From Vulcanimicrobiota bacterium (GTDB lineage Bacteria > Vulcanimicrobiota > Vulcanimicrobiia > Vulcanimicrobiales > Vulcanimicrobiaceae): a stretch of 64,000 nucleotides of DNA. Each line of letters begins with the position of its first letter. Position 1 is the stretch's first letter. The stretch lies in the NCBI GenBank assembly GCA_963812155.1, contig CAWETW010000001.1, positions 608,001-672,000 on the forward strand, given 5' to 3'. Of the stretch, positions 7,150 through 58,907 are shown one piece after another. A program made the translations under genes and the position numbers. The notes under the pieces were generated by a model. It did not search any database, was not told the DNA's origin, and saw nothing but the letters and a program-made list of their open reading frames with translations.

Positions 7150-7293
7150 GGCCGCCCTTCGACTTCGCATCGAACTGCGTTCGATGCTGCGCTCAGGGTG
7201 ACACCGTAAAGGATGCTCGCGCTCGGGCCGCCCTTCGACTTCGCGTCGAACCTCGTTCGATGCTGCGCTCAGGGTGACACTGTAAAGGATGCT
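7149..7293 (+). repeat. Two tandem REP-like elements (76-bp period)
   Basis: GGGCCGCCCTTCGACTTCGC-hairpin-GCTGCGCTCAGGGTGACAC.GTAAAGGATGCT at 7149 and 7225, between convergent genes. Confidence 0.85.
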
Positions 7294-11355: not shown

Positions 11356-13434
11356 ATGATGGATAGGACTACGCGAATCGTCTCTGCGCTACTCGCAATG
11401 CTGATGGCGCCGTTGGCCCTCGGCGCCGCCCCGGCGGAGCCGCCGCCGCTTCAACCGGCTCACCCCACCCAGATCGACTGGAATCTCACACCCGAGCAGA
11501 TCACGGCGACGTGCACGGCACAAATAGCCGACTTGGATGCAGCGGTCAAACGGATCATGGCGGTGCCGAGCCCGCGCACATTCCAGAATACGCTGCTTCC
11601 GCTGGAAAACGCGGAAGCCGACTTGAACGACCAATTCGTAGCGCAAGGGTTCCTCTTCAACATGGCGCTCGACAAGCCGGTACGCGATGCGTCCGATCGC
11701 TGCAACATTGCCCAGAGCAACTATTTCGCCGCTTTCGGAGCGCGTCCGGACGTCTATCATGCACTGGTCGAGGTTCAGCACAGTGGGACGGCTAAGACGC
11801 CCGCCGACAAGAAACTTCTCGAGTATTATCTCGTCAGCGCTCGCCGCTCCGGCGCGGCGCTCTCGGCCGACAAACGCAAGAGCTTCGTCGCCCTATCCAA
11901 CCAGTTGACCGATCTCGGCAGCAAATGGCAAGCCACCCTCAACAACGACGAGGCGACGGTGACCATCACGGCCGCTCAAACACAGAGCTTGCCGCCCGGA
12001 TTCGTGAAAACGCTGACGCAGAATGCCGACGGCACCTATACCGTGAAGGTCAACGAAAGCACGGTGGTGCCGTTCCTGGAAAACCAGAGCGATGCGGCTG
12101 CGCGTAAGACGTATTACGTGGCGTACAACAATCGCGCCGTCGGCAACGTGGCGGTCCTCGAACAGGCCATCGACGTGCGCTACCAGTTAGCCCGGCTGTT
12201 GGGATTCGATTCTTGGGCCGCCTACCAGCTGGCCGATCGCATGGCGCAAACGCCGGCGCGGGTCTTCTCGTTCGAGCGTTCGCTGGACGCAAAACTCATG
12301 CCGCAGGCCAAACGCGACCTCGCGGCGTTGGCGGCGCTCAAAGCGAAGGAAACCGGCGATCCGAACGCGCCCATCGAGCCGTGGGACGTTACGTATTATA
12401 ACAATCAACTCGTCAAGACAACATACTCGGTGGATAACGAGGAAATACGGCAATATTTTCCCGTCGAGGTCGTGATCGACCGCATCATGAACCTCTACCA
12501 CAAGCTTCTCGGCGTAACGTTCGTTAAAGTAGCCGATCCAAAGGCGTGGGCGCCGGACGTGATTAGCTACAACGTGTTCGACACGCAGAGCGGACGGTTC
12601 GTCGGGACGACCTACTTCGATCTCTTTCCGCGGCCCGGTAAGTATTCGCATTTTGCGAACTGGCCGCTCGTCCCGGCACGCCGGCTGGCCGACGGAAGCT
12701 ATCGGCCGCCGGTCACCGCCATCTTAGGCAACTGGCCACGGCCGGCTCCGGGCGCGCCCGCGTTGCTTTCGCATCAGGACGTCATCACGTTTTTTCATGA
12801 GTTCGGGCATAATCTCGCGGCACTGCTGGCGACCGCGCCGTACGAAACGCTGAGCGCCGGGTTCCGTCAGGATTTCGTCGAGGCGCCTTCGCAAATGCTC
12901 GAGAACTTCATGTGGGAGCCGGCGATTCTTAAGGAAGTCAGTTCCAACGTCACAACCGGCGCGCCGCTCCCGGACGATCTCATTGCAAAGATGGTCGCCG
13001 CGCGTTACGTCGACCAGGCGTATTTTACGCTCGGCCAAATCAAGCTGGGAATGGTCGACATGGCCTACCATTCGACCGGTCCGCACGTCGACACGACGGC
13101 CGTGTGGGGGCAGATTTCTTCGGAATACACGCCGCTGCCGATGGTTGCCGGAACGCATCCGCAAGCATCGTTCGGGCACCTCTTCGGCTACGATGCCGGC
13201 TACTACAGCTACTTGTGGGCGCTCGTGTACGCGCAAGACATGTTTACCGCGTTCAAAAACGGCGGCCTGGAAAACCCGGCGGTCGGGATGCGCTACCGCG
13301 AGACGATTCTCGCGCCCGCGCGCATCTACGAACCCGACGTTGAGGTGCGCGACTTTCTCGGCCGGCCGATGAGCAGCGACGCGTTCTACAAGCAGTTTGA
13401 AACCGCACCGGAGCCGACGCCGGCCCCGCACTGA
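11356..13434 (+). CDS. M3 family metallopeptidase (thimet oligopeptidase-like), secreted
   Basis: FDLFPRPGKY.H, FFHEFGH, DFVEAPSQMLE, FGHL.GYDAGYYSYLW; N-terminal signal peptide. Confidence 0.92.
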   Translation: MMDRTTRIVSALLAMLMAPLALGAAPAEPPPLQPAHPTQIDWNLTPEQITATCTAQIADLDAAVKRIMAVPSPRTFQNTLLPLENAEADLNDQFVAQGFLFNMALDKPVRDASDRCNIAQSNYFAAFGARPDVYHALVEVQHSGTAKTPADKKLLEYYLVSARRSGAALSADKRKSFVALSNQLTDLGSKWQATLNNDEATVTITAAQTQSLPPGFVKTLTQNADGTYTVKVNESTVVPFLENQSDAAARKTYYVAYNNRAVGNVAVLEQAIDVRYQLARLLGFDSWAAYQLADRMAQTPARVFSFERSLDAKLMPQAKRDLAALAALKAKETGDPNAPIEPWDVTYYNNQLVKTTYSVDNEEIRQYFPVEVVIDRIMNLYHKLLGVTFVKVADPKAWAPDVISYNVFDTQSGRFVGTTYFDLFPRPGKYSHFANWPLVPARRLADGSYRPPVTAILGNWPRPAPGAPALLSHQDVITFFHEFGHNLAALLATAPYETLSAGFRQDFVEAPSQMLENFMWEPAILKEVSSNVTTGAPLPDDLIAKMVAARYVDQAYFTLGQIKLGMVDMAYHSTGPHVDTTAVWGQISSEYTPLPMVAGTHPQASFGHLFGYDAGYYSYLWALVYAQDMFTAFKNGGLENPAVGMRYRETILAPARIYEPDVEVRDFLGRPMSSDAFYKQFETAPEPTPAPH

Positions 13435-14198
13435 ACCGAGCCGGCACCCCGCTCGACCACACCGGCCCGCGCAGAAGCGTTGGCTACTGAAAGAACGGGC
13501 TCGCTTCGGCGGGCCCGTTCTGCGTTCTGCTTTTGCCATGAAAGCGTCGCCTCGGCAACGACGCGACCGCCATCCATGAGCGCGAGCCGATCCATGCGGT
13601 GGCTCTTCGGAAGATAGAGCATCGCGACGCTGCCGGCCGGAACAACATTGCCGAGCATCGTGCGCGTGCCGTCGTGCATCCACGCGACCGCGAGTGCCTT
13701 CGATGCGCTTCGTACGACAACCACGTACCACGACCCGTCGAGCGCGTACATCACTTCCGCGGGCGGGCTCGCGTTGGCCGGCTGAAATCGCGCCGTCCGA
13801 TGCGGAGCGCTCGCCAGGCGACCCATCGCATCGCTTTGCGCGAGCATGGCGACGTGCGCCGCCCGATTCGCCGACCAGAAATAGGCTGAGGGCAGAAGTC
13901 CGAGGAGCAGCGCTGCTGCCATCGCTGCCGCGTACGGCCACGCCACACGCCGCGAACGGCGCTGCGCTTCGAGGAAGCGCGGTTGCACCAATTGGCCGAT
14001 ACGGGTCTCGAGGGCAGGCGGCGGCGTGCGTTGCGGCTCCGCCAAAGCGATCCGAGCGACGTCGTCCTCGGCGGCACCGACCTCCTCCATGCAGACGGTA
14101 CACTCGCGAAGGTGCGCGTCGATCGCCGCGCGTTCGTCGTCAGAGAGTGCACCGAGCGCGTACAGCGCGGCTCGATCCTCGACGTGCTCGTATCTCAC
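13386..14198 (-). CDS. Anti-sigma factor (RskA-like, zf-HC2 N-terminus); true 3' end may be earlier
   Basis: YALGAL...HLRECTVC (HxxxCxxC), one TM helix; overlaps the sigma gene stop. Confidence 0.8.
   Translation of the reverse strand: MRYEHVEDRAALYALGALSDDERAAIDAHLRECTVCMEEVGAAEDDVARIALAEPQRTPPPALETRIGQLVQPRFLEAQRRSRRVAWPYAAAMAAALLLGLLPSAYFWSANRAAHVAMLAQSDAMGRLASAPHRTARFQPANASPPAEVMYALDGSWYVVVVRSASKALAVAWMHDGTRTMLGNVVPAGSVAMLYLPKSHRMDRLALMDGGRVVAEATLSWQKQNAERARRSEPVLSVANASARAGVVERGAGSVQCGAGVGSGAVSNCL
13492..13521. terminator. Stable hairpin between convergent genes
   Basis: AGAACGGGCTCGC-TTCG-GCGGGCCCGTTCT; lies in the doubtful C-terminal extension of the anti-sigma ORF. Confidence 0.5.
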
Positions 14199-14758
14199 AA
14201 CCGATCGCCCCCGTTAGCTACGGTCGATTTCAGAACGGAGCCGAGTTTTCGCAGGCCGTGCTTGATGCGGCTCTTGATCGTACCCAGCGGCGCGTGAAGT
14301 TCGGCTGCGATCTCGCTGTGCGTCTTTCGTTCGTAGTACGCCAGTTCGAGCGCGGTGCGCTGATCGGGCGGCAGCGCGCGGAGCGCGCTTCGAACCCGGT
14401 CGCGCTCGATCGGATCGGCCACCTGCAACTGCTCGTGCTCCACCGGCAGCGCGGCAAGGCGTTGCTCCAGACGAAGTGCGCGAGACTGGCGCCGGCGGCG
14501 CGAGATTGCTTCGTTGCGAACGCAGACCACGAGGAAGCTTCGCAGATTGCCGCGGGACGCTGAGTATGCTCCTCGCGATCGCCAAAGCGTTGCGACTGCG
14601 TCCGCTATGCAATCTTGAGCGTCGTCGGCGTTACCCAGCACGTTATAGGCTGCCGAATAGAGCAGCGCCGCGTAGCGGCGATAGGCCTCGCCGAACGCCC
14701 AGCCCTCGTGCGCCGCAAACGCAGCAGCCAAAACCTCATCTCCCTCGCCCGCCGGCAT
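14195..14758 (-). CDS. ECF RNA polymerase sigma factor (SigK-like)
   Basis: Region 2 (AQD, LW, RNEAI) and region 4 (LPPDQR.ALELAYY..THSEIA..L..PLGTIKSR). Confidence 0.9.
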   Translation of the reverse strand: MPAGEGDEVLAAAFAAHEGWAFGEAYRRYAALLYSAAYNVLGNADDAQDCIADAVATLWRSRGAYSASRGNLRSFLVVCVRNEAISRRRRQSRALRLEQRLAALPVEHEQLQVADPIERDRVRSALRALPPDQRTALELAYYERKTHSEIAAELHAPLGTIKSRIKHGLRKLGSVLKSTVANGGDRL

Positions 14759-14805
14759 CGTGGGGCACAGACTTCGACGCGGGCGACCGTATCATCCGCT
14801 CAGAG

Positions 14806-14870
14806 AACGCCGGAGGAGCTCGGCCGGATGCTTTTCGAATCACTCATCCGGTCACGTTGGGCAAATCGTA
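14806..14870. promoter_or_regulatory. Divergent ECF-type promoters
   Basis: Minus strand GCATCC-16-CGTT (14831-14806); plus strand TCATCC-17-CGTA (14844-14870). Confidence 0.5.
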
Positions 14871-14878
14871 CCAAAGCA

Positions 14879-15346
14879 ATGAATGTTTTACTTTCCGTCA
14901 TCCTGCTCGCGCAAAGCGCCTTCGCTCCGCTTTACGGCGCCCCGCAGTGGATCGGATCGCGACCTGCCGCCGCGTCGTATGCGGGCAAAGTCGTCGTCGT
15001 CGACGTCTTTACCTTCGATTGCATTAACTGCCAGCACGTCGTCCCAGAACTGCGCTCCCTGCGCGCCCACTACGCGACGAAGGATCTGCTCGTCGTCGGG
15101 ATCCATACTCCGGAAACGCCCTTTGAACGCGTACGGGCGAACGTCGTTGCGGCGCTCGCGACGCAAGGGATTTCGTGGCCGGTCGCGATCGACAACGACG
15201 AGAAGCTGTGGAACGCCTACGGCATTGCGTACTGGCCGACGCAGCTGATCTTCGACCGTCACGGGCGGCTCAGAAAGACGGTCATCGGCGAGGGCCAAGA
15301 TGCCGAAGTCACGTCAACGGTCGCCGCGTTAGCGGCAGAGCGATGA
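14879..15346 (+). CDS. Redoxin (TlpA/DipZ-like thioredoxin domain)
   Basis: FTFDCINC, GIHTPE, WPVAIDND, YWPT, GEG. Confidence 0.85.
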   Translation: MNVLLSVILLAQSAFAPLYGAPQWIGSRPAAASYAGKVVVVDVFTFDCINCQHVVPELRSLRAHYATKDLLVVGIHTPETPFERVRANVVAALATQGISWPVAIDNDEKLWNAYGIAYWPTQLIFDRHGRLRKTVIGEGQDAEVTSTVAALAAER

Positions 15347-15450: not shown

Positions 15451-15987
15451 ATGACGCAGGAGACCTTAAACACCGTCGCCACTGTCGGCACATTTATCGT
15501 GATTGCGGCGACCGCGATCGCCGCCGTCGTGCAACTACGCCATTTACGCGACCAGAATCAACTTACCGGCTTGCTAACCGTCCTGGAGCGAGTAGAGGAT
15601 CCGCAATTCAACGAATGGGTGGATGGGGCAAGGGAACTGCTCAGATTACGTATGCCTGATCCCGCCTACCGGCGCACGCTCCTCGACGGGACGTTTGAGC
15701 GAAGAAACAACCCGTGGCTAAATCTCGCGAACTCATATGACTGGGTTGGTAGCCTGGTGAAGCACAAGCTGATCCCTGAGGAGTCGTTGCTCGATGTGTA
15801 TTCAAGATGGCAGATTGTCGAGGGCGTTGTTCCGCTAGTACGCAAGCGCGGAGGACCGGGCGTATGGGAGAACTTTGAATATCTCGTCGTCCAAGCGCGC
15901 AACTGGAGCATGCGATATCCGGACGGAGCTTATCCAAAAGGCGTCGCAAGGCTTCAGATTGATGTTACGTGGCCGGAACTCGCATAG
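15451..15987 (+). CDS. Hypothetical protein, N-terminal TM helix (DUF4760-like)
   Basis: TFIVIAATAIAAVVQLRHLR...N.YDWVG.LVK...WENFEYL; SD GGAGG. Confidence 0.6.
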   Translation: MTQETLNTVATVGTFIVIAATAIAAVVQLRHLRDQNQLTGLLTVLERVEDPQFNEWVDGARELLRLRMPDPAYRRTLLDGTFERRNNPWLNLANSYDWVGSLVKHKLIPEESLLDVYSRWQIVEGVVPLVRKRGGPGVWENFEYLVVQARNWSMRYPDGAYPKGVARLQIDVTWPELA

Positions 15988-16091
15988 ACACGAGGTCTCA
16001 GGAGCCAGACGAACGATGCCCTTGTCGTTTGCACCTCTACGCGTTGCCGTGCCTCACAGTGTGCCGCCGAATGGAGCCTAGGTCTTAAACC

Positions 16092-16163
16092 TCGGACCCG
16101 GTCGTTCTCGAAAATCGTCTTGTACTTATCCGGATCGGTGCATGTCGGATCTAGGTCGTCCAT
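16092..16163 (-). pseudogene. 5' stub of a cupin-domain gene
   Basis: MDDLDPTCTDPDKYKTIFENDRVR is a typical small-cupin N-terminus; similarity stops abruptly. Confidence 0.6.
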
Positions 16164-16304
16164 GTCGCTGTCTTCTTTCTCTCAACGGACAATCGCTATG
16201 AATGCATCGTATCGTCATATTGTGGTCGAGGGGACACAAATCGCATTGTTAGCACCCCAAATCGCAATTCTGAAGCTGTCCGGTCCGCGCGTGCTAACGT
16301 CCAG

Positions 16305-16685
16305 TTAGTCCTTTGCAGACGCTATAGCTTCATGCACCGCCAAGAATGCCTGTCGACCCGTGGGCGTTCCGCAGTAAACGGTGATCTGAACCAAAGCCTC
16401 TTTGATTTCGTCGACCGTTACGCCGCTGCCGAGCGCGGCATTCGTGTAAATGCCCAGCTCTTGAAAACGGCCCAGTCCTGCGAGGATTCCAAGCGTCAAG
16501 ATACTTCGTGACTTCCGGTCGAGTCCGGGACGACTCCATGCGTAGCCCCAAGCCAATTCCGTAACGGCTCGTTGAAACGTCTGCATGAATTCGTCAGAAC
16601 CTTCAAGGTTCGCGTCCACATACTTAGCGCCGAGTACTTGCCTCCGCGTCTCGAGACCCTTCTCGAATAACTCGTTGTCAGCCAT
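16305..16685 (-). CDS. Carboxymuconolactone decarboxylase family protein
   Basis: GLETRRQVLG..YV, AWG..WSRPGLDRKSRS, EIKE.L.Q..VYCG.P. Confidence 0.85.
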   Translation of the reverse strand: MADNELFEKGLETRRQVLGAKYVDANLEGSDEFMQTFQRAVTELAWGYAWSRPGLDRKSRSILTLGILAGLGRFQELGIYTNAALGSGVTVDEIKEALVQITVYCGTPTGRQAFLAVHEAIASAKD

Positions 16686-16750
16686 CGCCTGACTCTCCGT
16701 TCCTTCGGCATGATTGCTCTCAACGGTGAGGCGCGCGTCACGAAGCTGAT

Positions 16751-16789
16751 TCACCAAAACAGGCCGCCAACTCCCGTGACGCGTTCCAT
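16751..16789 (-). pseudogene. 13-codon stub of a VOC/glyoxalase-family gene
   Basis: MERVTGVGGLFW* resembles the M.RVTGIGGVFF N-terminus of VOC proteins. Confidence 0.5.
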
Positions 16790-16868
16790 CCCGACTAATT
16801 TGGTGGAACGATGACGATCCTCCCGCAGGTAGATCCGCGAAGGGCCGCGCAGTGCATTGCTTACACAG

Positions 16869-19610
16869 ATGGCCCTCAATGCACCCCGTCCTACTGGAAC
16901 TGTCACGCTGCTTTTTACCGACATCGAGGGCAGCACGCAACATTGGGAGCAGCAGCGCGCGGCGATGCCCGATGCATTGCGCCGCCACGACGAGCTGCTT
17001 CGAGCGGCCATCGAAGCACATAGCGGTTACATTTTCAAGACCGTAGGCGATGCGTTTTGCGCAGCGTTTTGGCGGGCGTCAAGCGCTGTCGCAGCTGCTG
17101 CTGATGCGCAACGGGGACTCGCGAGCGCGGACTGGAGCGCCGTCGGCGGTCTGGCGGTGCGCATGGCGCTGCATAGCGGCGCAACCGACGAGCGCGACGG
17201 TGATTATTTCGGACCGGCGGTCAATCGCGTCGCGCGGCTCGTGGCTATCGGTCACGGCGGCCAAATCCTGCTCTCCGGCGCTACCCGTGAACTCACGCAT
17301 GGCGATCTGCCCGCCGGCACGGCGCTCGTCGATCTCGGTGAGCAGCGGCTGCACGATCTCACCGACACCGAGCACGTGTGGCAGATTGACGTCGAGGGGT
17401 TGCCGAGCGAATTTCCGTCGCTGCGCTCACTCGACGCACTGCCGAACAACTTGCCCGTTTCGCGCACCACCTTCGTGGGGCGCGAACGTGACGTAGCCGA
17501 AGTCAAGGAGCTGCTCGAGCATCACCGCCTGCTCACGCTGGTTGGTTCGGGTGGTGTCGGCAAGACGCGCCTGGCAATCCAGGTCGGCGTTGAACTGCTC
17601 GATCGCTATCCCGACGGGGCGTGGTTCGTCGACTTCGCCCCGATCAACGACCCGGAGCTGGTCGCCAGCGTCGTCGCGCAGGCGCTGGGTATGAGCCAAC
17701 AGGAAGGGCGGCGCATCGACGAGGCGATTCCGCAATGGCTGCGGCGCAAGAAGTTGCTGGTCATCTTCGACAATTGCGAGCACGTGCTGGAGCCGACGGC
17801 AGCGCTTGCGGATAACATCTTAGCAACGGCGCCGGATGTTCGCATCTTGTCGACGTCGCGCGAAAGGCTCGACGTCATCGGCGAAGCGGTGCACCGGCTC
17901 CCGTCGTTGGCGGTTCCAGCTGAGGCCGCCGGCTTGACGCCCGATGAAGCGCTGCGCTATGGCGCCGTTGCCCTTTTCGTGGATAGGGCCAAGGCCGCCG
18001 ATACGCGCTTTACGCTCACGGATGACGGCGCACCAATCGTCGCCCAGATCTGCCAGCGGCTCGATGGCATTGCACTGGCAATCGAACTCGCTGCCGCGCG
18101 CGTCAAGATGCTTTCCATCCCTAACCTCGCGCAGCGACTCAACGAACGCTTCAAGCTGCTCACGGGAGGGAGTCGCACCGCGCTTCCGCGCCAGAAAACG
18201 CTCGGCGCGCTGATCGACTGGAGTTACGACCTACTCGCGTCACACGAGCAACTGTTGTTTGCGCGCCTTGGGATCTTTGCCGGCGGATTTGGCCTGGATG
18301 CCGTGAAAGCAGTCTGCGGCGGCGATCTCGACGACGTTGACGTTTTCGAGGTGCTTGAGTCCTTGACCGACAAATCGCTGGTCGTCGCCGACACCGGCGG
18401 CGAGCGCGAACGCTACCGGCTGCTCGAATCAACGGCCGCGTACGCGCTCGAGAAACTCAACGCATCGGGACAGGGCGAACGCATGGCCAGACGTCACGCC
18501 GAATACTTTCGCGACGAGGCCGAAGCTGCGGACGAATGGCTCGGCGTCTCGACGATTGCATGGCTTGCCGCCGTCGAGCCCGAGCTGGACAACTACCGGA
18601 CGGCGCTGGAGTGGGCGCTTACGCTCGAGAATAACGCCGTGTTAGGCGGCGCGATTGCCGGCGCAATCGAACGCCTTTGGTTGCATACCGGCCTCGTCGT
18701 CGAAGGGCGCTATTGGATTGGGCGTGCGCTCCCGCGCATTGACGAGGCCGAGCAGCCGCGCATTGCAGCGAGGTTGTGGTTGACGCAGGCGAGACTCTTA
18801 CCCGGCAAGGGCTGCTATGACGCGGCCGAGCAGGCGCTGCGGCTTTACGAATCTGTCGGCGACGTACGTGGCGCGGCGCGCGCACTGCGACTTCGCGGCT
18901 ACGCACTGTATCAGATGGGCCGCCTCGATGAGGCCCACAAGACGACGGTCCTCGCGCTTGCGGGGTCGCGCACGTGCGCAGATTCGTTGATGGTTGTCGA
19001 CTTGCTCGTGCTGCAGGCGGCCATCGAAATGAGCCGAGGCGATCTCGGCGCGGCGCGCGAGCTCTATGCGCATGCTCTCGCGGGCTGGAAATCGACTGGC
19101 GATGAGCTTGGCATTGCATCGGTATTGGGCTCAATGGCGGAGATGGAATTTGCGGCGGGCGATCCCGCGCAGGCGCTGCGTTGGACGAACGAGGCGCTGG
19201 AGCTCGGATCGCTCGGGAAAAACTTATCGTTTGCAGCGAACTGGCGCGTTAACAGCGCCGCCTATCGCATCGCACTCGGCGACCTTACAGGAGCCCGCGA
19301 GTCGGGACGCGGCGGATTGCGTCTCGCCCGGCAGGCAAGAAGCGAACTGTTCCTCGCCACCGCGCTTCAGCATCTGGCCCTCGTTGCAGCGCTCGCCGGA
19401 GATACGCGACGCGCTGCTCGGTTGTTGGGCTACGTCGATGCGAAATACGGCGAGCTCGGAATGAAACGCGAAATCACTGAGCAATGGGGCCATGACAAGT
19501 TAGTCGCGACGCTGCGCGAAACGATCGGCGCAGATGAGATCAAAAAACTTGCGGCCGAAGGCGCCGCATGGCTGGAAGACCACGCAATCGAGGAAGCGTT
19601 AGCGGTTTAG
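16869..19610 (+). CDS. Class III nucleotide cyclase - NB-ARC-like ATPase - TPR protein
   Basis: LLFTDIEGST, KTVGDAF, DYFGPAVNRVAR; Walker A GSGGVGKT, FDNCEH, LDGIALAIELAA; C-terminal helical repeats. Confidence 0.9.
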   Translation: MALNAPRPTGTVTLLFTDIEGSTQHWEQQRAAMPDALRRHDELLRAAIEAHSGYIFKTVGDAFCAAFWRASSAVAAAADAQRGLASADWSAVGGLAVRMALHSGATDERDGDYFGPAVNRVARLVAIGHGGQILLSGATRELTHGDLPAGTALVDLGEQRLHDLTDTEHVWQIDVEGLPSEFPSLRSLDALPNNLPVSRTTFVGRERDVAEVKELLEHHRLLTLVGSGGVGKTRLAIQVGVELLDRYPDGAWFVDFAPINDPELVASVVAQALGMSQQEGRRIDEAIPQWLRRKKLLVIFDNCEHVLEPTAALADNILATAPDVRILSTSRERLDVIGEAVHRLPSLAVPAEAAGLTPDEALRYGAVALFVDRAKAADTRFTLTDDGAPIVAQICQRLDGIALAIELAAARVKMLSIPNLAQRLNERFKLLTGGSRTALPRQKTLGALIDWSYDLLASHEQLLFARLGIFAGGFGLDAVKAVCGGDLDDVDVFEVLESLTDKSLVVADTGGERERYRLLESTAAYALEKLNASGQGERMARRHAEYFRDEAEAADEWLGVSTIAWLAAVEPELDNYRTALEWALTLENNAVLGGAIAGAIERLWLHTGLVVEGRYWIGRALPRIDEAEQPRIAARLWLTQARLLPGKGCYDAAEQALRLYESVGDVRGAARALRLRGYALYQMGRLDEAHKTTVLALAGSRTCADSLMVVDLLVLQAAIEMSRGDLGAARELYAHALAGWKSTGDELGIASVLGSMAEMEFAAGDPAQALRWTNEALELGSLGKNLSFAANWRVNSAAYRIALGDLTGARESGRGGLRLARQARSELFLATALQHLALVAALAGDTRRAARLLGYVDAKYGELGMKREITEQWGHDKLVATLRETIGADEIKKLAAEGAAWLEDHAIEEALAV

Positions 19611-19709
19611 ACGTGCGTTCGAAAGTTGCGTGGGAATCGACGAAGAGCCCCATGCTTAGCGGCACGGGGAACCCAGGGGGCCGAACGATGCCACCGAAAG
19701 CGGCCTTCT

Positions 19710-20927
19710 ATGAATAGCGTTAATCTGCGCCGTTATGCGTTGAGCACCGCGGCTTTGGCTTTACTCGCGGCCTGCGGCGGTTCGCAGCCTCCGATCCAGG
19801 CAACGCAAGCGTTCGCACATCGCATTCCGGCTACCCAGAACTACGAGGTGCTGTATAGCTTCGGCAACGGCGCCGACGGCGCAAACCCGGCAGCGGCGTT
19901 AGTTGCGTTGAGTAACGGTTCGGGCTGCTGCTTCTACGGTACGACACAATATGGCGGCAAATACAACAAAGGCACGGTGTTCGGGTACGGGGCTGCCGGC
20001 GAGGCCGTGCTACACAGCTTTGGCGCCGGCTCCGACGGAGTTTCTCCGCAGTCGGGTTTGGTCGAAGTCAACGGCGCGCTCTACGGAACGACGCCCTACG
20101 GCGGGAAACATGGCGACGGTACGGTCTTTAGCGTCAATCCAACGACCGGCGCGGAGACCGTTTTGCTCGATTTTAACGGTCACGATGGAGCGCTGCCGTT
20201 CTCGGGACTGCTCGACGTCAGCGGCACGCTCTACGGCACAACCTACGAAGGCGGCGACGGCAATCGCGGAGTCGTGTACGGCATCACCACGAGCGGTACG
20301 CAAAAAGTGGTATATAGCTTCCACGGGCGACCGCACGGCGGCAACCCCGACGGCGCATCGCCGATTGGCGGCTTGATCAGCATGGACGGTTTGCTGTACG
20401 GCACGACCGATCAAGGCGGTAATTCGGGTGACGGGACGGTCTTTAGCCTCAACCCCGCTACCGGCGTGGAAACGGTGCTGCACGCGTTTGACGGGTCCGA
20501 CGGGGCAAACCCCTGGGTGGGATTGCTCGACGTAAGCGGCACGCTCTACGGCACCGCACAAGGCGGCGGAACGAATGGCGACGGCACGATTTTCAAACTC
20601 ATTCCGCCGACGAAAGTGCGGCCTATCGCTTTCGCCGTGGTTCACGATTTTGTCGCGGCCGAGGGAGCGCGGCCGCGCGCGCCACTCGTTAATTTCGATA
20701 ACGAACTCTACGGCACGACGAGCTTCGGCGGCGCATCCGATAAAGGCGCGATGTATAATATTTCGCTGCAGGGAGCGTTGGGAGAAACGCATAGTTTCGC
20801 CGGCGGCCCCGGCGACGGATCGCAGCCGTGGGCGGGAGTGCTGCTGATGGACGGCACGTTGTACGGCACGACGCTCAAGGGCGGCCTATACCGTAAGGGT
20901 GCGATCTTCTTGTGCGAGTTCTGTTAG
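19710..20927 (+). CDS. Lipoprotein with tandem beta-propeller repeats (GloVer-type)
   Basis: Lipobox LLAAC; about seven repeats of DGA.P...L....G.LYGTT..GG....GTVF. Confidence 0.85.
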   Translation: MNSVNLRRYALSTAALALLAACGGSQPPIQATQAFAHRIPATQNYEVLYSFGNGADGANPAAALVALSNGSGCCFYGTTQYGGKYNKGTVFGYGAAGEAVLHSFGAGSDGVSPQSGLVEVNGALYGTTPYGGKHGDGTVFSVNPTTGAETVLLDFNGHDGALPFSGLLDVSGTLYGTTYEGGDGNRGVVYGITTSGTQKVVYSFHGRPHGGNPDGASPIGGLISMDGLLYGTTDQGGNSGDGTVFSLNPATGVETVLHAFDGSDGANPWVGLLDVSGTLYGTAQGGGTNGDGTIFKLIPPTKVRPIAFAVVHDFVAAEGARPRAPLVNFDNELYGTTSFGGASDKGAMYNISLQGALGETHSFAGGPGDGSQPWAGVLLMDGTLYGTTLKGGLYRKGAIFLCEFC

Positions 20928-20933
20928 CGATCG

Positions 20934-21280
20934 TCAGCGAGGGCGAACGATAATGGCCGTCTGCCCCGCGTCGAGCCAGACGGCACGGGATACGTAAGGG
21001 CTCGTCAGCCAAGCGAACGCGGCGTCGACCTCTTCGCGGGCAACGCCCCGCGTGCTGTTATATGCTGCGAGCCGGGCGTCGAGCAGGCTGCGCGCAACGT
21101 CGCGGGTGAAGTTCGGCGGAGCCCCGTCGCCCATTGCGTGCGCCATGCGCTGCTGCTCTAAGCCGAGTTCGATCAACCACGACGCTACGACCCGCAGCCG
21201 CTTCGGTGCGCCGTGCACCGTCTCCCAGGCGAGATCGCCGAGTGGATCGGCGGCGAAGCCAAGCCGATCGCTTGAGGGCC
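20934..21280 (-). pseudogene. Probable 3' fragment of a hypothetical gene
   Basis: Coding-like frame (DPLGDLAWETVH...AFAWLTSPYV) without a convincing start. Confidence 0.35.
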
Positions 21281-21352
21281 GCGCTGCGCTACACTAACGA
21301 AAGATGTCACTTGTCACGACTAGGTAAACGAGCGTGATGCTAAGATCGAAGC

Positions 21353-21404
21353 GAGGCCTGGCCTGACGTTCCGAGATCCTCATGTAGTGTCGCCAGCCCT
21401 GAGA
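21353..21404 (+). repeat. Island repeat, copy A
   Basis: 38/52 ungapped identity to the reverse complement of 22767-22818. Confidence 0.65.
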
Positions 21405-21490
21405 CCAGGGATAAACGACTAGGGATAACCCTGGTTTGCCGATTGCATGCGCTGACGAGAGTACAGCCGATGACCGATTGCTGGCATTGG

Positions 21491-22048
21491 TTATGTGAGC
21501 AAAGAGGCTGCTTCGTCCTCCAGCATAGCGTACAGGTATGAGCTACGCCAAGTTCCCTTTTGGAAGACGTCACCCTGGAATTCCGCTTCGCGACGCATCC
21601 CTAGCTTTTCTAATACTCGCCACGAAGCCACGTTGCGCACATCGCAGGTAGCCCAAACACGATGCAGTTGTAATACAGAGAACGCTACGTGAAGAACTGC
21701 GCGACTGGCTTCCGTGGCATAGCCTTGGTTCCAGTAGCGCTTATTGAATGCGTATCCAAACATGGCGGTTCGATTCGGTGGATCTAGAATTGTAAGACCA
21801 ACTCCCCCGATCACTCTATGCTCGGCAAGAAGTTCGGCCGCTAGTAGCACTTTATCGCGAGGCCACGTTAGCTGATCGCGCAATCGAGACGACAACAAGT
21901 CGTGTGTCTCGTGTGGCTCGTTTGGTCCCCAGTCAACATACTTTGAAATGGCGGGGTCGCCGCGATACTCATGGATGTCTGCTTCATCGTTAGCGGTAAC
22001 CTCTCGGAGCGTCAGGCGGGTTGTCCTAATCGGAAACCACTTTTCCAC
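21491..22048 (-). CDS. GNAT N-acetyltransferase (RimJ/RimL-type)
   Basis: RTTRLTLRE, YWNQGYATEA, N.ASWRVLEKLGM; GTG start 6 nt after TATACT. Confidence 0.88.
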   Translation of the reverse strand: MEKWFPIRTTRLTLREVTANDEADIHEYRGDPAISKYVDWGPNEPHETHDLLSSRLRDQLTWPRDKVLLAAELLAEHRVIGGVGLTILDPPNRTAMFGYAFNKRYWNQGYATEASRAVLHVAFSVLQLHRVWATCDVRNVASWRVLEKLGMRREAEFQGDVFQKGTWRSSYLYAMLEDEAASLLT

Positions 22049-22094
22049 AACCAAAGTATACGTCGCGTATTTCCAATTACGCAATATAAAGGTT

Positions 22095-22132
22095 GATACT
22101 ACATAAGGCCTCGGAACTTCCGGTTTTCGGCC
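22095..22132 (-). repeat. Island repeat, copy B
   Basis: GGCCGAAAACCGGAAGTTCCGAGGCCTTATGTAGTATC, nearly identical to copy C. Confidence 0.75.
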
Positions 22133-22159
22133 ATATAAGGGGGCTTCCAAGCCTCGGGT

Positions 22160-22672
22160 TTAGGTTTTCTTATCGAGGTTCAGCGCAAGGACCACTCGGC
22201 TACCCAGTTGATCCAATCCTAGCGCTTTCTCGCGTTCGCGAAGCCTTTTTAGTCCGGTCGTCAATTTCGGTAGAGGATTGAACCCCCGCTTCAGATAGAA
22301 CGGAGCATTCCATGTAATGTGAGCAAACGTAATCAACGTCAAACGAGCGTACCCACACTCTCGTGCTGCTTCAATGACGTGGCACAAAAGTTCGCTTCCC
22401 ACGCCTTTCCCCGTATGCTTGGGAACCACCGACATCTGCTCCAAGTGGAATTCTCCATCGATTTCGATGGCACGAACGAATCCGACTGGCGGATCACCGG
22501 CGACAAGCGTGAAGAGCGATCGTCGATACGTTTCTTCATCTGCTGGCGAAGGTAACGGACCTATACCCTGCTGCCGAAACAGTTCATCGGCAGCATATTC
22601 GATTGCAGGAAGTAGTGCTATGTCCGCATCCAGTGCCTTGCGGATTGCGTAGCGCTTAGATGAGGCGGCCAT
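22160..22672 (-). CDS. GNAT N-acetyltransferase
   Basis: HLEQMSV.P.H.GKGVG, LTL.TF....WNAPFY..RGF. Confidence 0.88.
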   Translation of the reverse strand: MAASSKRYAIRKALDADIALLPAIEYAADELFRQQGIGPLPSPADEETYRRSLFTLVAGDPPVGFVRAIEIDGEFHLEQMSVVPKHTGKGVGSELLCHVIEAARECGYARLTLITFAHITWNAPFYLKRGFNPLPKLTTGLKRLREREKALGLDQLGSRVVLALNLDKKT

Positions 22673-22766
22673 CAGATGGCCGAGGTTCTGACTGATTCGT
22701 CAGTCTTCCGCCATCCTGCTGGTAGATCAGGTTACCAATCCTGGCTTTCTGGTTATCGATCCGCAA

Positions 22767-22868
22767 TCTCCGGGCTGACGATACTACACAAGGGCTTCGG
22801 AACTTCCGGTTCGGCCCCTGAGACCTCGCGTCTTATGCGAGTTCCGTCCATGTAACATCGATCTGCAG
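22767..22868 (-). repeat. Island repeat copy C plus 3' stub of a DUF4760-like paralogue
   Basis: The reverse complement of 22813-22868 matches 15952-16006 (49/56) and encodes LQIDVTWTELA*; the repeat follows. Confidence 0.8.
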
Positions 22869-23032
22869 GCAGCGCTGCCGACGCTCGTCAACTGGTTCCC
22901 GCGGATCCTTCTGCTCCGAGTTTTCTTCGCGTATTTCGCCTATGCCGCTAAAGCTGAAAGCGAACCATGATAAAGCAGTTCCCGAAGGAGTATCCAGCGT
23001 ACGTCAGCCGAACGAAAATGCTCGTCCCGTTT

Positions 23033-23896
23033 CTACTGTAAAAGCGACGCGCTCGGAACGCTCTCAGACGGCCTCCGAACCGCGGAAACCTTGACCACCT
23101 GGTCGAAGCCTTTGAGCCTTACATGGCCGAGGTCTTGGAACGCCAAGCTTTTTCCGATGCACAATTCTGCAACCACGTTCGACACCAGACTCTGTTCGGG
23201 CTGAGCGTGCGAACAAAGCCTCGACGCGAGTTGAACCGTCGATCCGAATAGATCGCGATTACTTTCCACCGGCTCTCCGGCAGCCGCGCCGATTCGAACT
23301 TTCACACAGCAGTCGTCGTTTTCCCACGTATGTTCCGCTAGCGTTTGATGAATGGTATTCGCACATCGAACGGCTGATGCAGCCGACAAAAACGCTGCCA
23401 TTACGCCATCGCCCGTGTGCTTGACTTCACGGCCTCCGAACGATTCCAGAGCACTTCGCACGATTTCGTCGTGAACCCTAAGTAACGCCATACCAGCGTC
23501 ATCACCAAGGCGTTGAGTCATCGACGTCGATCCGACAACGTCCGTAAACAGAATCGTTCTTATTCCGGAATCGTGCTCGTTCCCGGCGTTGCCGGGCACA
23601 AGGGCCGCACCGTCCGAATTCACTTCACTTCCGCCTAGAAAGCCTTCCGCGACCTCGGGTGCGACCTCGATGATCTTCACGGCGACGAGACCGTGCGCCT
23701 CGCGATGCACGCTCATGGCTGCCTCGGGATCCGGCGCGGTGCAAAGGCAGAACACCTTGCCTTGGGCTTCATTGAGCCAATACTTGTGATAAACCACCCC
23801 GTACTTGCCCTGAGTCGCAACATCTGCCGCATGCGCGACGCCAACCGCTTGTGCGGTAACTCCCGGAATCTCGTGGATATCCATGTACGTGGGCAC
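23033..23896 (-). CDS. DUF4242 (SCO4226-like) domain fused to class III adenylate/guanylate cyclase
   Basis: MPTYMDIH...AH.AD...YW......FCL..AP......VHREAHG; ILFTDVVGST, VKHTGDG, DLFGSTVQLASRL. Confidence 0.85.
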   Translation of the reverse strand: MPTYMDIHEIPGVTAQAVGVAHAADVATQGKYGVVYHKYWLNEAQGKVFCLCTAPDPEAAMSVHREAHGLVAVKIIEVAPEVAEGFLGGSEVNSDGAALVPGNAGNEHDSGIRTILFTDVVGSTSMTQRLGDDAGMALLRVHDEIVRSALESFGGREVKHTGDGVMAAFLSAASAVRCANTIHQTLAEHTWENDDCCVKVRIGAAAGEPVESNRDLFGSTVQLASRLCSHAQPEQSLVSNVVAELCIGKSLAFQDLGHVRLKGFDQVVKVSAVRRPSESVPSASLLQ

Positions 23897-23918
23897 GCCG
23901 CGGTCCGTGTCTTGGAGT

Positions 23919-24434
23919 CTAAGCCGGAGGGCCGGCGGAAACGGATATCTCGGGCGGTTGTCGGAGCGTCTGATACACGACGCAATATCGTTCGGTTAGG
24001 CGAATCAGTGTGCTGATCTGCTCCTCGGATGCGTCGGTGTCCAGTGCGAACCCAAGCCGAATTCGGCTAAATCCGACCGGTGCATCTTTGGCTACTCCGA
24101 GGGTTCCTCTGAAGTCAAGATCGCCGTCAGCTTTAACCACGGCATCTCGAATGTCGACTCCTATTGCGGTGGCCACGGCGCTGAGCGTAACTCCGGCGCA
24201 TGCGACAAGCGCCTCGAGCAACATGTCTCCGGAGCAAGCGCTCAAACCGCTTCCGCCCGTAGCGGGATGTAACCCCGCTTCGATGAGCGCCTTCCCGGTT
24301 TGAACGTTGCACGTAATGCCTTCGCCGAGACGGCCTTCGGCTTTCAGCGTGATTAACGCGGCATCTGGCTTCGCTTTGTATTGCTCTTTTATCGGCGCTT
24401 GAATCGCCCGCAGTTCTTCAGCGTTGATAGCCAT
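23919..24434 (-). CDS. OsmC/Ohr-like protein
   Basis: AGLHPATGG, CSGDMLLEALVACAGVT, GDLDFRG, TERYCVV; SD AGGAG. Confidence 0.88.
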   Translation of the reverse strand: MAINAEELRAIQAPIKEQYKAKPDAALITLKAEGRLGEGITCNVQTGKALIEAGLHPATGGSGLSACSGDMLLEALVACAGVTLSAVATAIGVDIRDAVVKADGDLDFRGTLGVAKDAPVGFSRIRLGFALDTDASEEQISTLIRLTERYCVVYQTLRQPPEISVSAGPPA

Positions 24435-24491
24435 ATGCTCCTATACTCGCAAATGCAGGTGTGCGCCCGTTTTCTAAGCCCCGGGCGATTG

Positions 24492-24764
24492 TCATGGATT
24501 TGCGAGGCCACCTGGCAAACTCCTGGAATCGATAGCGGGCGGCGACGCAACGAAGGGCAACACAGTCTTGCTTTCTGCAGCAAAGGCATCAAGTGTTGCG
24601 TTCAATAAAGGAGCAGCCTGCTTCGGGTCAATCTTCACCTTCATAACGCTGACGATCCGCTTATCATATTTTCCCGCAGTGCGATCATCGATCAAAACCA
24701 TTTCAGCCGAGTCCCCTCTCGAATGCACTATCGGCGCTACGCCTTCAAAAAGGTGGAACCGCAT
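24492..24764 (-). other. Possible hypothetical gene or fragment
   Basis: 90-codon ORF in the island; no recognisable motif. Confidence 0.25.
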
Positions 24765-25081
24765 ATCGCGGATCGCTCACCATTTGCGGTGTCTTCATCA
24801 GTAAGGGGCGCGGCCAATCCGAAAGGCTCATCAAGTTCGCAGATTTTGAAAACGTGAACAATGTGCCGTGCGAGCTTAAAGCAAGTAGCTGTGAGCCTGG
24901 AGTCCACCTATTCTAGGCTAAAGCATACGCCTAGTCGCTGTTTTAAATCTGTACGTAATCGCACCCCGAGAGGTTTGCTTTGCCGCTGGTTAGGGGAATC
25001 GCGGACAAGATAAGGACCATACACTTGGCCCGGACGCGATAGCGGGCGCCATTTGCAAAGGGACGTCGCACCTCACGCCGC

Positions 25082-25753
25082 CTAGATGACTGGGGCGGTA
25101 ATGGCTGTAATTCCCGCGCCGTTCCAATGCGCGAAGAGCGGCTTGATCGGATGGCAGCGTGAAACGCGCGGCGGTTTGAAGATGGCAGCGCACTCGCCGG
25201 ACGGGTCTCTAACGCTGCGGTATACGATACCATCGCTGCCGGCGGCGTGCAGACGGACGCCGAGGGGCTGCGATTTTTCGTAGCTGACGGGGCTGTACCA
25301 GCCGCGATTGTCGCTTGCGCGGATATCGGTGAAGTCGCCGCGCACTGAGGCCTCGTACAGCATCAGTTCGAGCATCTGCGGCGCTTCATGGGAAGCGCGC
25401 ATGAAGCGTTCGCGATGGTAGCGGACTTCGGCTATCGCCGTCGGCAATGTGTGGCCGGCGTAGAACGCACCGAATGTCGGGTCGCAAAAGCGTGACCCTT
25501 CGGGATTCGGGTGGGCGAACGGCGCCATGATCACGGTTGCGCCCGGCCCGATGACGCGCTCGGCCGGTGCAATCGAAGCGATCGCGCCGAGTTGCTCGCG
25601 TAGACGCGGATTTGTGCGCGCGTCGAGTTCGAGCAGTGCGTCGAGTTCCGACTCGTCGACGAGGCGGTCGAGGATTCCAACACTGGGGAACCGAGTCGAA
25701 ATGATTCTCTTCGCCGCACGCCAGTGGACGCGCGAGGTTGGAATGGATGACAC
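25082..25753 (-). CDS. RES-domain toxin (NAD+ phosphorylase family)
   Basis: RII..RFP, GSRF, FYA, TAIAE, Y..SQ, GI.Y.SVR; GTG start just after the antitoxin stop. Confidence 0.88.
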   Translation of the reverse strand: MSSIPTSRVHWRAAKRIISTRFPSVGILDRLVDESELDALLELDARTNPRLREQLGAIASIAPAERVIGPGATVIMAPFAHPNPEGSRFCDPTFGAFYAGHTLPTAIAEVRYHRERFMRASHEAPQMLELMLYEASVRGDFTDIRASDNRGWYSPVSYEKSQPLGVRLHAAGSDGIVYRSVRDPSGECAAIFKPPRVSRCHPIKPLFAHWNGAGITAITAPVI

Positions 25754-26210: not shown

Positions 26211-26343
26211 GTCCTTCGACTGCGCGCCTGAGGGCGCTCCGCTCAGGATGACACCAAGAGAGGGCGCCTTCGCTCAGGATGACACCGAGGAGGCCGGCGG
26301 TCCTTCGACTGCGGCGCTACGCGCCTTCGCTCAGGATGACACC
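26211..26343 (+). repeat. Cluster of REP-like elements (two full, one half)
   Basis: GTCCTTCGACTGCG-hairpin-CGCTCAGGATGACACC; the last copy overlaps the hutH 3' end. Confidence 0.85.
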
Positions 26344-27861
26344 GGCAGCGTCGACCAGCTCGCCGGAACGGATGAGGGTGCGGGCGGAGGCGATGTCGGG
26401 GGCGGGGGCGCGGTCTTCGGTCCAGGGCGCGATCGTTTGGCGCGCGAGATCGTGGGCGGCATGCGTGCCGGCGCCCGAACGCAGCGGTCGCCGCAGATCG
26501 GTCGCGGCGAGCGCGCCCAACAGTTCGCACGCCAGCGCGCCTTCCACGTTGTCGAGCACGCGCTCGAGGTTGTTGGCCGACGTCATCCCCATGCTGACGT
26601 GATCTTCTTGCCCTGCCGACGTCGGGATCGAATCGACGCTCGATGGCCACGCCAGCCCCTTATTGTCGTTGACGAGCGCCGCGGCCGTGTACTGCACGAT
26701 CATCAGCCCCGACTGCAGCCCCGAGCGCCCGGTCAGGAAGAGCGGCAGCCCGCGATCCTCGGCGTTGAGCAGCAGGTAGAGCCGCCGTTCGCCGATCGAC
26801 GCGAGTTCGGAGATCGCAAACTTCAGAAAGTCGATGGCGACGGCGATCGGTTCGCCGTGGAAGTTGCCGCCGGACAGAAACTCACCATCGTCGGGAAACA
26901 CCAACGGGTTGTCGGTCACCGAGTTCGCCTCGATCTCGGTCACCCGCCGCACGTGGGCGATCGAGTCGCGCACCGCGCCGTGCACCACCGGGATGCAGCG
27001 GAACGAGTACGGATCTTGCACCCGTCCGCACTCGGCGTGCGATTCCACGATCTGCGATCCGGCCAGCAGCGCCCGCAGATTCTTGGCGACACGCATCTGC
27101 CCCGGATGCGGGCGCAGTTCGTTGAGCCGCCGGTCGAAGACGCGCTCGCTGCCGTGAAACGCCTCGAGCGACATCGCGCCGATAACGTCGGCCGCCGCCG
27201 CGAGCCGCTCCGCGCGCAAGACGCCGAGCCCGCCGATCGCCGTCATCATCTGCGTGCCGTTGATCAGCGCCAGCCCTTCTTTTGCGCCGAGCGTTACGGG
27301 CGTCAGTCCGGCTCGGCTCAATGCGTCGGAGCTCGACAGCCGCTCGCCCTGAAAAAACGCCTCGCCCTCGCCGATCAGCGTCAGCGTCATGTGCGCGAGC
27401 GGAGCGAGGTCGCCGCTGGCGCCGACCGATCCCTGGCACGGCACCACCGGCGTCACGCCCCGATTGAGCAACTCGACGATGAGGTCGAGCGTCTCCGGCT
27501 TGATGCCGGAATGGCCGGCCGAAAGCGAATTCGCGCGCAACACGCCGGCCGCGCGCACGAGCCGCGCGTCGAGCGGCGCGCCAGTGCCGGCGGCGTGGCT
27601 GCGCACGAGGTTGAGTTGCAGCAGCCCGGCGTCGGCGGGCGCGACCGGCACGTTGGCGAGCCGGCCGAAGCCGGTCGTGACGCCGTAGATCGCGTCGCCG
27701 GATGCGAACCGCTCTTCGACGAACGCGCGTGCCCGTTCGACGCGTTTGCGCGCCTGCGCCCCGATTCGAACCGGTGCGCCGCCGGCCGCCGCTTCGAGCG
27801 CTTCGAGCGTCAGGCTGCGGCCGTCGAGTTCGACGGGTTCGGCGGAGCGTTCGGCGTGCAC
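26317..27861 (-). CDS. hutH: Histidine ammonia-lyase
   Basis: YGVTTGFG, NLVRSHAAG, MIO motif GSVGASGDLAPL, KEGLALINGT, QDPYSFRC, GGNFHG, QEDHVSMG. Confidence 0.95.
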   Translation of the reverse strand: MHAERSAEPVELDGRSLTLEALEAAAGGAPVRIGAQARKRVERARAFVEERFASGDAIYGVTTGFGRLANVPVAPADAGLLQLNLVRSHAAGTGAPLDARLVRAAGVLRANSLSAGHSGIKPETLDLIVELLNRGVTPVVPCQGSVGASGDLAPLAHMTLTLIGEGEAFFQGERLSSSDALSRAGLTPVTLGAKEGLALINGTQMMTAIGGLGVLRAERLAAAADVIGAMSLEAFHGSERVFDRRLNELRPHPGQMRVAKNLRALLAGSQIVESHAECGRVQDPYSFRCIPVVHGAVRDSIAHVRRVTEIEANSVTDNPLVFPDDGEFLSGGNFHGEPIAVAIDFLKFAISELASIGERRLYLLLNAEDRGLPLFLTGRSGLQSGLMIVQYTAAALVNDNKGLAWPSSVDSIPTSAGQEDHVSMGMTSANNLERVLDNVEGALACELLGALAATDLRRPLRSGAGTHAAHDLARQTIAPWTEDRAPAPDIASARTLIRSGELVDAAGVILSEGA

Positions 27862-33412: not shown

Positions 33413-33456
33413 GTCCTTCGACTGCGCGCCTGCGGGCGCTTCGCTCAGGATGACAC
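33413..33456 (+). repeat. Single REP-like element
   Basis: GTCCTTCGACTGC-GCGCC TGCG GGCGC-TTCGCTCAGGATGACAC. Confidence 0.85.
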
Positions 33457-33547
33457 AACCAGCGCCACTGCTCACGGTCAGGTGGGGTGCGCGCTGCGGT
33501 CGGCGTGGCACCAATTAGCGGCGGTCAGCCGTGACACGGTTAGACGG

Positions 33548-58835: not shown

Positions 58836-58907
58836 CCCTTCGACTTCGCGTGCTTCGCACGCTGCGCTCAGGGTGACACCAATAGGCTCGCGGCGGTTAG
58901 GATGACA
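58836..58907 (+). repeat. REP-like element plus degenerate half
   Basis: CCCTTCGACTTC-GCGTGC TTC GCACGC-TGCGCTCAGGGTGACAC; AGGATGACA at 58899. Confidence 0.8.

Follow-up and report, generated by a model that had tools for sequence, protein, structure and literature searches.

A degenerate repeat recurs between the genes of an island in a genome of the phylum Vulcanimicrobiota, and the question raised by this locus is whether the repeat is the recombination site of a gene-shuffling system or the end of a mobile element. The stretch analysed, here called the window, comprises 64,000 nucleotides (G000:C1:608001-672000, where G, C and L denote genomes, contigs and loci) of an assembly of 2.96 Mb which is 83.85% complete. 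The first-pass annotation had described four copies between positions 15952 and 22868 and proposed either an undescribed recombination system acting in trans or a decayed mobile-element end resembling the TGT end of a transposon. The second idea was right in substance, except that the end is a casposon end reading GGGATAC and not a TGT-type transposon end. The repeat is almost certainly the terminal inverted repeat (TIR, 33 bp) of a casposon lineage which encodes Cas1. As the best overall explanation, held with good confidence, the island would consist of casposon ends in a decayed state, with clipped copies of the repeat marking fused tandem casposons.

The evidence for this assignment comes from relatives. 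A sample of 95 regions (1.9 Mb), picked by a match to the repeat pattern or to Cas1 and hence non-random, contained 170 distinct TIR copies, and the site reads on the other strand as GGGATACTACATAAGGGC-N5-AACTTCCGGT. Each left end was paired with the next right end, which gave 14 pairs, and the 14-bp flanks were identical at all 14 positions in 12 of these pairs and at 11/14 and 6/14 positions in one pair each. Seven of the 12 perfect pairs enclose Cas1 together with genes for a protein like family B DNA polymerase (PolB), an HNH-like protein and a helix-turn-helix (HTH) protein on 14.9-17.0 kb (twice in G010 and once each in G183, G193, G194, G207 and G230), the Cas1 and polymerase genes of G193 being in pieces. 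In one further perfect pair Cas1 is the only one of these genes, and the remaining four, 2.8-8.7 kb long, are deletion derivatives; in total, Cas1 lies inside 8/12 perfectly duplicated elements. The layout of full elements is TIR, cargo, PolB-like, HNH-like, HTH, a 340-aa gene, Cas1, cargo and TIR. In addition, head-to-head copies lie 18 nt apart (CC, 14 bp, GG) in 24 of 28 junctions, representing tandem insertions.

The Cas1 proteins of these relatives match Cas_Cas1 in Pfam with E-values of 9e-37 to 9e-39, and their best match in the PDB is 6OPM, the casposase of Methanosarcina mazei (E 5e-15). The catalytic residues E170, H253 and E268 are invariant in 19/19 proteins. A quick tree, which comprised these 19 local proteins only and no reference casposases, showed two clades. 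The close clade has 21 near-full Cas1 loci; in the fetched DNA, 17 of them carry this TIR and four do not, two of the latter having variant TIRs at the same target. The polymerase-like protein (945-965 aa) falls into DNA-polymerase clusters of the Atlas at 0.98-0.99, and the HNH-like gene (212-221 aa) is conserved. No CRISPR array was detected in any of the seven elements scanned, and there were no Cas matches among the four core proteins neighbouring Cas1, a scan which covered core proteins and not all cargo. Cas1 therefore appears to be stand-alone in these elements.

Within the window, three copies are matched by the hidden Markov model (HMM) of the family, the seed of which included all three. 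Copy A (22780-22818, minus strand, E 1e-10) is a left-type casposon TIR with its outer end at 22780; the terminal two C are missing and the outer end is joined to DNA upstream of an acetyltransferase gene, GNAT1. Copy B (22095-22132, minus strand, E 5e-8) is a clipped TIR with the junction TATC/AA, situated 46 nt before the GTG start of a second acetyltransferase gene, GNAT2. Copy C (21353-21391, plus strand, E 0.026) is a diverged TIR pointing right; it duplicates A in inverted, diverged form, together with about 22 nt of the outer flank of A. The first-pass annotation was thus correct about the presence of these three, with the borders of A and C as given here, and its 38/52 identity between A and C was reproduced exactly. 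Its fourth copy (16001-16025), described as a deleted site, is instead the decayed tail of a duplication shared with A: region D (15952-16025, plus strand), without an HMM match, consists of the 3′-end of a DUF4760 gene and a decayed, internally deleted TIR, and forms an inverted duplicate of 22788-22868 (81 bp, 80% identical) which includes the DUF4760 3′-end. In G009, too, a TIR-like start comes after the DUF4760 ortholog.

The scores from local alignment, each compared with 300 shuffles, were 70 for A and B (shuffle maximum 51.5), 74 for A and C (55.5) and 105.5 for A and D (58); B and C scored 40 against a shuffle maximum of 45, which is not significant alone. A and B are clipped casposon ends and would be inner ones, and copies C and D probably arose from A by inverted duplication. 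A head-to-head junction is tentatively placed at 21392-21441 (no strand), where copy C is followed by 18 nt (2+14+2) and then, at 21408, by GGGATA, the start of a TIR in a badly decayed state; the basis is the 18-nt spacing of the family junctions, and the GGGATA is perhaps the lost outer end. The 14-mer at this junction is unlike the target consensus. The island as a whole reads as an array of casposon ends which has lost its core and was partly inverted and duplicated, and it is regarded as a relic because neither Cas1 nor PolB was found in G000. The statement that the repeat is confined to this island holds for G000, since the family HMM, run over the full assembly, matched only A, B, C and one chance-level sequence (E 0.87), and it gave no match when the genome was reversed. 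In one soil sequencing run, possibly that of the source sample, contigs span 19161-22804 (11 differences) and 22795-25530 (3 differences).

A different origin would be an independent site-specific system, integron-like or Xer/pdif-like, which shuffles cassettes in trans. Integron cassette arrays and pdif modules consist of variable small genes separated by a recurrent co-oriented site, and the repeat resembles them in outline: the same site-gene unit occurs here in different genera, arrays reach 24 intergenic copies in one 100-kb region of G013, G001 and G013 contain sites with only an Xer-like recombinase, and the TTATGT half-site presumably resembles a XerD arm. The same sequence, however, is the terminus of elements with Cas1 and PolB and 14-bp duplications. 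Unlike integron or pdif arrays, the sites show no tyrosine recombinase, no attC hairpin, no fixed spacing to stop codons and no sign of excision of single cassettes. In folding, single copies do not surpass shuffled sequences (z 0.11, -0.35, -1.14), no copy lies near the likely terminus of C1 at about 150 kb, and no joints at the sites were among the 15 listed for four runs, for which contigs only were considered. We regard such a system as very improbable, and the recombinase in trans is unsupported in the form in which it was proposed. In the whole genomes of G001 and G013, one tyrosine recombinase each was found, Xer-like and of housekeeping type, with an open frame of 323-324 aa, while no chromosomal dif site was located.

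Three specific site types were rejected. The consensus has no R″/R′ boxes and no fold above shuffles, which excludes an integron attC, in agreement with the early remark that attC boxes are absent. An Xer dif or pdif site, including integrative mobile elements exploiting Xer (IMEX), is contradicted by the absence of two-arm symmetry in the consensus and of copies near the skew maximum of C1. The inverted repeat of an insertion sequence does not fit either, as the conserved enzyme between the ends is Cas1 and the IS3-like genes seen are passengers. Searches with Rfam and ARAGORN gave no match to a structured RNA or tRNA in the window. Two further features assigned to the repeat at first did not persist at family level. 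The dyad core CGGAA-G-TTCCG is not conserved, as the five nucleotides after GTT vary. Stop codons do lie 13-27 nt before each copy in the window, although the open reading frame ending at 21337 has no Pfam match and is probably not a gene; the distance from stop codons ranges from 12 to 3047 nt among the clipped copies of the family, so the position is not fixed.

The target of the casposons was recognized from filled sites, which split a clostripain-like gene at the codons QCLMDT/MGFAD. In G000 this gene is intact (C4:165186-166397) and contains the empty site as a single 14-mer at C4:165702-165715. The product was assigned to the clostripain (C11) family of peptidases by Atlas features (0.95) and structure (TM 0.80), a Pfam match of its N-terminal half (E 0.22) being treated as chance; judging from the family, the target would lie at the region of a catalytic Cys. 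Clostripain-like genes were found in 55 of 61 relatives, with three of the 55 matches coming from genomes flagged unpublished. The contrast between filled and empty sites and the identical tandem duplications are comparative signs that the casposons may have been mobile.

Beside the leader-side end, conservation extends over 33-34 bp (14 bp plus about 20 bp). At 33 of 47 leader-side ends only this 34-bp target copy is present without the surrounding gene. Such ends occur even in G001, G007 and G013, which have an intact gene at another place. Of 61 target matches in 2.2 Mb of loci, 59 adjoin a TIR (reversed control 0), and in G000 only the true gene site reaches at least 26 bits, compared with a leave-one-out median of 33 bits in a test which is biased by the cut of 11 out of 19 matches. 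The landing site therefore likely travels with the elements as portable 34-bp copies. At a position with T in the gene, 82% of the ectopic copies have an A, and recognition of a motif could be an alternative reason for this. Chance secondary sites were considered for the ectopic leader copies and are unlikely, given that nothing besides the gene site attains that score in G000. Related casposons with different TIRs use the same clostripain target (G024:C41, L185-L186; G198:C87, L181), and split target genes also occur in G040, G203 and G205 of another family.

The most distinctive feature of the lineage concerns the inner copies. The 170 copies comprise 97 with a full CCC terminus, 4 with a mutated CCC and 48 which are clipped, while 21 were too degenerate to be classified and were left out. 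Exactly 2 nt are missing in 42 of the clipped ends, 1 nt in two, and 3 nt or another number in four; the 48 come from 25 genomes or contigs, and two of them lie in this window. The next nucleotide is a purine after 45/48 clipped ends (A 26, G 19) and, when related junctions are merged, in 42/45 (p 1.7e-5 against a background of at most 0.66). Of 38 clipped ends with a neighbour on the outer side, 34 are co-oriented with it at gaps of 19-6819 nt, and the clipped copies separate gene-sized cargo. The first impression of a cassette array thus stands at the family level, supported by a junction of GNAT and site recurring in another genus, but without the fixed placement after stop codons. Short gaps of 19-92 nt exist as well, and the one checked (47 nt, in G229) repeats sub-terminal sequence. 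No target duplication was detected between clipped ends in 17 pairs (best 6/8). In one case the clipped end is fused, without microhomology, to the 3′ part (middle) of a cas1 gene, and an outer end of G179 together with 406 bp matches the terminus of the G193 casposon at 91% identity.

We give an even chance to the proposal that clipped co-oriented copies mark places where tandem casposons have fused. Published casposases integrate TIR 3′-ends with a stagger of 14-15 bp beside a leader, and tandem stacking is known (PMC5137440, PMC6614799, PMC6977970, PMC10359463). Accordingly modelled, the casposase would insert each new element beside the previous one, and a later deletion, with a precise end 2 nt inside the end of the older element and a variable end inside the neighbour, would remove the junction. 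The old end would then stay inside, with the terminal cargo and the end of the neighbour lying outside, and repeated rounds would lead to arrays of alternating ends and genes. Inner ends without their terminal CC would be unusable by the casposase, so that the composite would move as one unit. Most likely, the casposase or a partner nuclease would make the cut or the join at the precise end. The junction within cas1, without microhomology, is what one would expect of a deletion reaching into a casposon next to it. That microhomology causes the clipping was rejected, since none was seen in the one readable donor.

Random deletions followed by selection could produce similar arrays, if clipped ends survived as casposase-inert sequences whose outward box TAGTAT, which we take to resemble a sigma-70 -10 box, drives the cargo gene. 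The next gene points away from the clip in 22/29 cases (p 0.008), among them 12/14 within 200 bp, and the spacing of the B-GNAT junction is kept in two genera. The ratio of 2:42:4 for endpoints at -1, -2 and -3 or other, however, is too sharp for random breaks. Cargo is directed outward at full ends too (70/96), so its co-orientation needs no promoter, and a promoter scan flagged none of A, B and C. We consider this explanation unlikely.

Equally unlikely in our view is a capture resembling CRISPR adaptation, in which the casposase inserts foreign DNA 2 nt inside its own end and the TIR is duplicated as a repeat, with the cargo as a gene-sized spacer. The geometry agrees with capture insofar as the outermost copy is full and the inner copies are clipped and co-oriented (34/38), genomes other than G013 show a sharp inner boundary at about 31-33 bp, and the incoming strand would end in a pyrimidine in 45/48 cases. 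Some neighbouring copies are identical or nearly so (31/31 in G392; 30/31 and 29/31 in G264), but on the whole neighbours are only a little more alike than unrelated copies (24.6 against 22.9 of 31, p 0.005), and many differ in the variable 5-mer. Leader polarity, moreover, is absent: clipped copies are not enriched on the leader side (9/41 against 7/41 ends, Fisher p 0.78), though insertion is polar. One of the supposed spacers is the tail of cas1. The known casposase stagger is 14-15 bp and not about 31 (PMC6614799, PMC5137440).

Several points weigh against casposon ends and tandem fusion as the explanation for the island. No Cas1, no PolB and no full-length TIR with a target duplication was found in G000, an assembly which is not complete, and the casposon assignment rests on relatives for this reason. 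The PolB gene matches weakly in Pfam (E 0.008), PHROGs (0.003) and a profile search against the PDB (0.35), these weak matches falling at the motifs DFxSxYP and DTDS. The HNH label is based on an H..N..H-like motif seen by eye, with no Pfam match and one unnamed PHROG (E 0.045). In the window, the decayed partner of copy C aligns at only 18.5 compared with 46 for A, a poor match. As for the fusion, the modest similarity of neighbours and the missing leader-side enrichment also count against a neat account, and only one donor context is readable. The fusion does not account for the cut 2 nt inside the end or for the purine which follows, and published casposases use the full 3′-end (PMC6614799).

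A 31-nt pattern with at most three mismatches was found in 59/401 genomes of the phylum, namely 57/296 of its own family, 1/30 of one other family, and G000, while the reversed pattern gave none; the phylum, family and target tallies include or may include genomes flagged unpublished (G036, G246, G250, G257). Exact matches carry the names Ca. Cybelea, Ca. Tumulicola and Vulcanimicrobiota/Eremiobacteraeota, besides one bin labelled Acidimicrobiaceae (6 loci). Metagenome contigs yielded five pattern matches and viral contigs none, hence no sign of an association with phages. A casposase-like Cas1 of either of two clades is present in 72/321 family genomes. On the contig labelled Acidimicrobiaceae (L026), a perfect head-to-head TIR junction lies among Cybelea-like propeller genes, which would reflect either transfer or an error in binning. 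Other labels borne by close casposases are Gemmatimonadaceae and Dormibacteraeota.

Members of the second casposase clade (30-36% identity) occur in G084:C3, G192:C1, G006:C92 and G176:C8 (L215-L218), in G007:C4 and at the end of G010:C2; in four loci they lie 6-11 kb from the same TIR and target motif. G194:C1 carries a complete casposon with a 1.2-kb terminal inverted duplication (L173 10257-11423, L174 5342-6506; 98% identical) which takes in a beta-propeller gene and an inner clipped end. Casposon cargo in relatives includes a type IIG restriction-modification enzyme (L182:10485-13865, G183) and a HEPN/AbiU2-like protein (L105:11215-13209, G264).

Among the cargo of the island in the window, the DUF4760 gene (15451-15987, plus strand; Pfam PF15956), 80% identical to its G009 ortholog, lies inside end D, and a 36-nt stub of a DUF4760 gene end (22833-22868, minus strand) is found directly inside A. 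Copies A and B share their orientation, with GNAT1 (22160-22672, minus strand; PF00583) between them and GNAT2 (21491-22048, minus strand; Acetyltransf_3) outside B; GNAT2 has a GC content of 0.515 compared with 0.635 for the rest of the window. Beyond A follow the 3′ fragment of an ICMT/PEMT-family methyltransferase gene (22879-23041, plus strand), a 91% identical copy of which is located at G000:C3:1160582, and, inside end A, a module of SCO4226-cyclase and OsmC genes (23033-24434, minus strand). In G006, this module is 84% identical and lies about 160 bp inside a TIR copy. Pfam searches with 13 proteins identified GNAT (twice), DUF4760, CMD, cyclase-STAND, cyclase, OsmC and RES-Xre, with no VOC or cupin match inside 15952-22868.

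Orthologs of GNAT2, collected regardless of the site, have a TIR within the locus in 4/20 cases against 1/24 in a control which is imperfect, its single match (L019) itself having been drawn by a weak site match. The B junction recurs in G086 and G100, of another genus, 46-47 nt before the GNAT start codon, and the G086 array starts with a full end with duplication and leader, followed by a GNAT gene, a clipped end, glyoxalase and GNAT genes, and a further clipped end. The same locus in G001, from a 336-bp block after a propeller gene to the RES-Xre pair, contains other cargo and a full end with leader.

Some observations concern the surroundings. At window position 15806 the DUF4760 gene lacks 15 nt which are found in a near-identical soil contig, and the G009 ortholog has the five extra residues too; the difference is either allelic or due to an error in the assembly. 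Immediately to the left of the island, a block of anti-sigma factor, sigma factor and redoxin genes (13386-15346) is inverted relative to G001 (L034:1532-3357) at 93% identity. The cumulative GC-skew minimum of C1 falls inside the island at about 624,900 (window about 16,900), although C2 carries dnaA and the maximum of the C1 skew lies at about 150 kb; the minimum is possibly a rearrangement breakpoint. Dispersed repeats similar to repetitive extragenic palindromes (7149-7293, 26233-26366, 33435-33480, 43801-44007, 57482-57577 and 58861-58903; core CTTCGCTCAGGATGACAC; families D5, D7, D10 and D15) often stand in short tandem runs, and a long array of 18/36-nt tandem repeats at 1317-1944 (D1, D3, D4, D6, D18) probably encodes low-complexity protein repeats.

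Casposons as such are known. With published casposons (Krupovic et al. 2014, PMC4046053; 2016, PMC4779613), among which bacterial ones are described as family 3, the present elements share a stand-alone Cas1, a family B polymerase, HTH and putative HNH-like genes, TIRs (published 25-602 nt), 14-bp duplications, a size of 12-18 kb, site-specific and tandem insertion, and solo-TIR remnants. This literature already reports solo-TIRs and tandem casposons, as well as an insertion into a gene which encodes a protein (aEF-2). In contrast to family-3 casposons, all intergenic according to the 2016 paper (PMC4779613), the target here is inside a conserved protease gene which is split, and unlike in published casposons the internal TIR copies are clipped by exactly 2 nt and stand in co-oriented arrays. 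MetMaz-C1 of M. mazei (6OPM; PMC6977970, PMC10359463) is similar in its 31-bp TIR ending TATCCC, the 14-bp duplication, tandem insertion and solo-TIRs, but it is archaeal and targets tRNA-Leu or intergenic DNA, and the excerpts of these papers describe its solo-TIRs beside the target motif and no nested clipped ends. The Aciduliprofundum boonei target comprises (PMC5137440, PMC6614799) a 15-bp duplicated segment and an 18-bp leader, compared with 14 bp and about 20 bp here; it differs from the present case, in which most leader-side ends adjoin a target copy without the clostripain gene. Our literature search found nothing joining casposons with Eremiobacterota or with clostripain, nor, among listings and the openings of abstracts, anything on clipped nested ends or non-autonomous casposon cassette arrays; the TIR tables of the 2014 and 2016 papers may bear on internal TIR copies and on the placement in a family. 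What appears to be new are the precise clipped ends in arrays, the protease-gene target, the portable target copies and the lineage itself.

The CRISPR adaptation module has been proposed to derive from casposons, and PMC6452270 leaves open the origin of the repeats, from TIRs or from duplicated targets. A far-reaching possibility, which we hold as doubtful, is that this casposon lineage builds heritable cassette arrays by a dedicated casposase reaction 2 nt inside its own end, with a purine preference, and spreads 34-bp copies of its landing site. If true, the TIR would serve as the repeat in an array of gene-sized units, a form still alive today that stands between a transposon and a CRISPR array, and this would bear on whether CRISPR repeats arose from TIRs or from target duplications. 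The lineage supplies 170 end sequences, a defined target for which an empty allele exists, and a non-standard junction that is both precise and recurrent, and the 2-nt clip and the purine bias give direct predictions on casposase activity in vitro. The clipped junction would turn TIRs into co-oriented repeats between cargo genes, and casposon ends of this kind would explain why GNATs, beta-propeller lipoproteins and defence genes form variable islands in Vulcanimicrobiota from soil.

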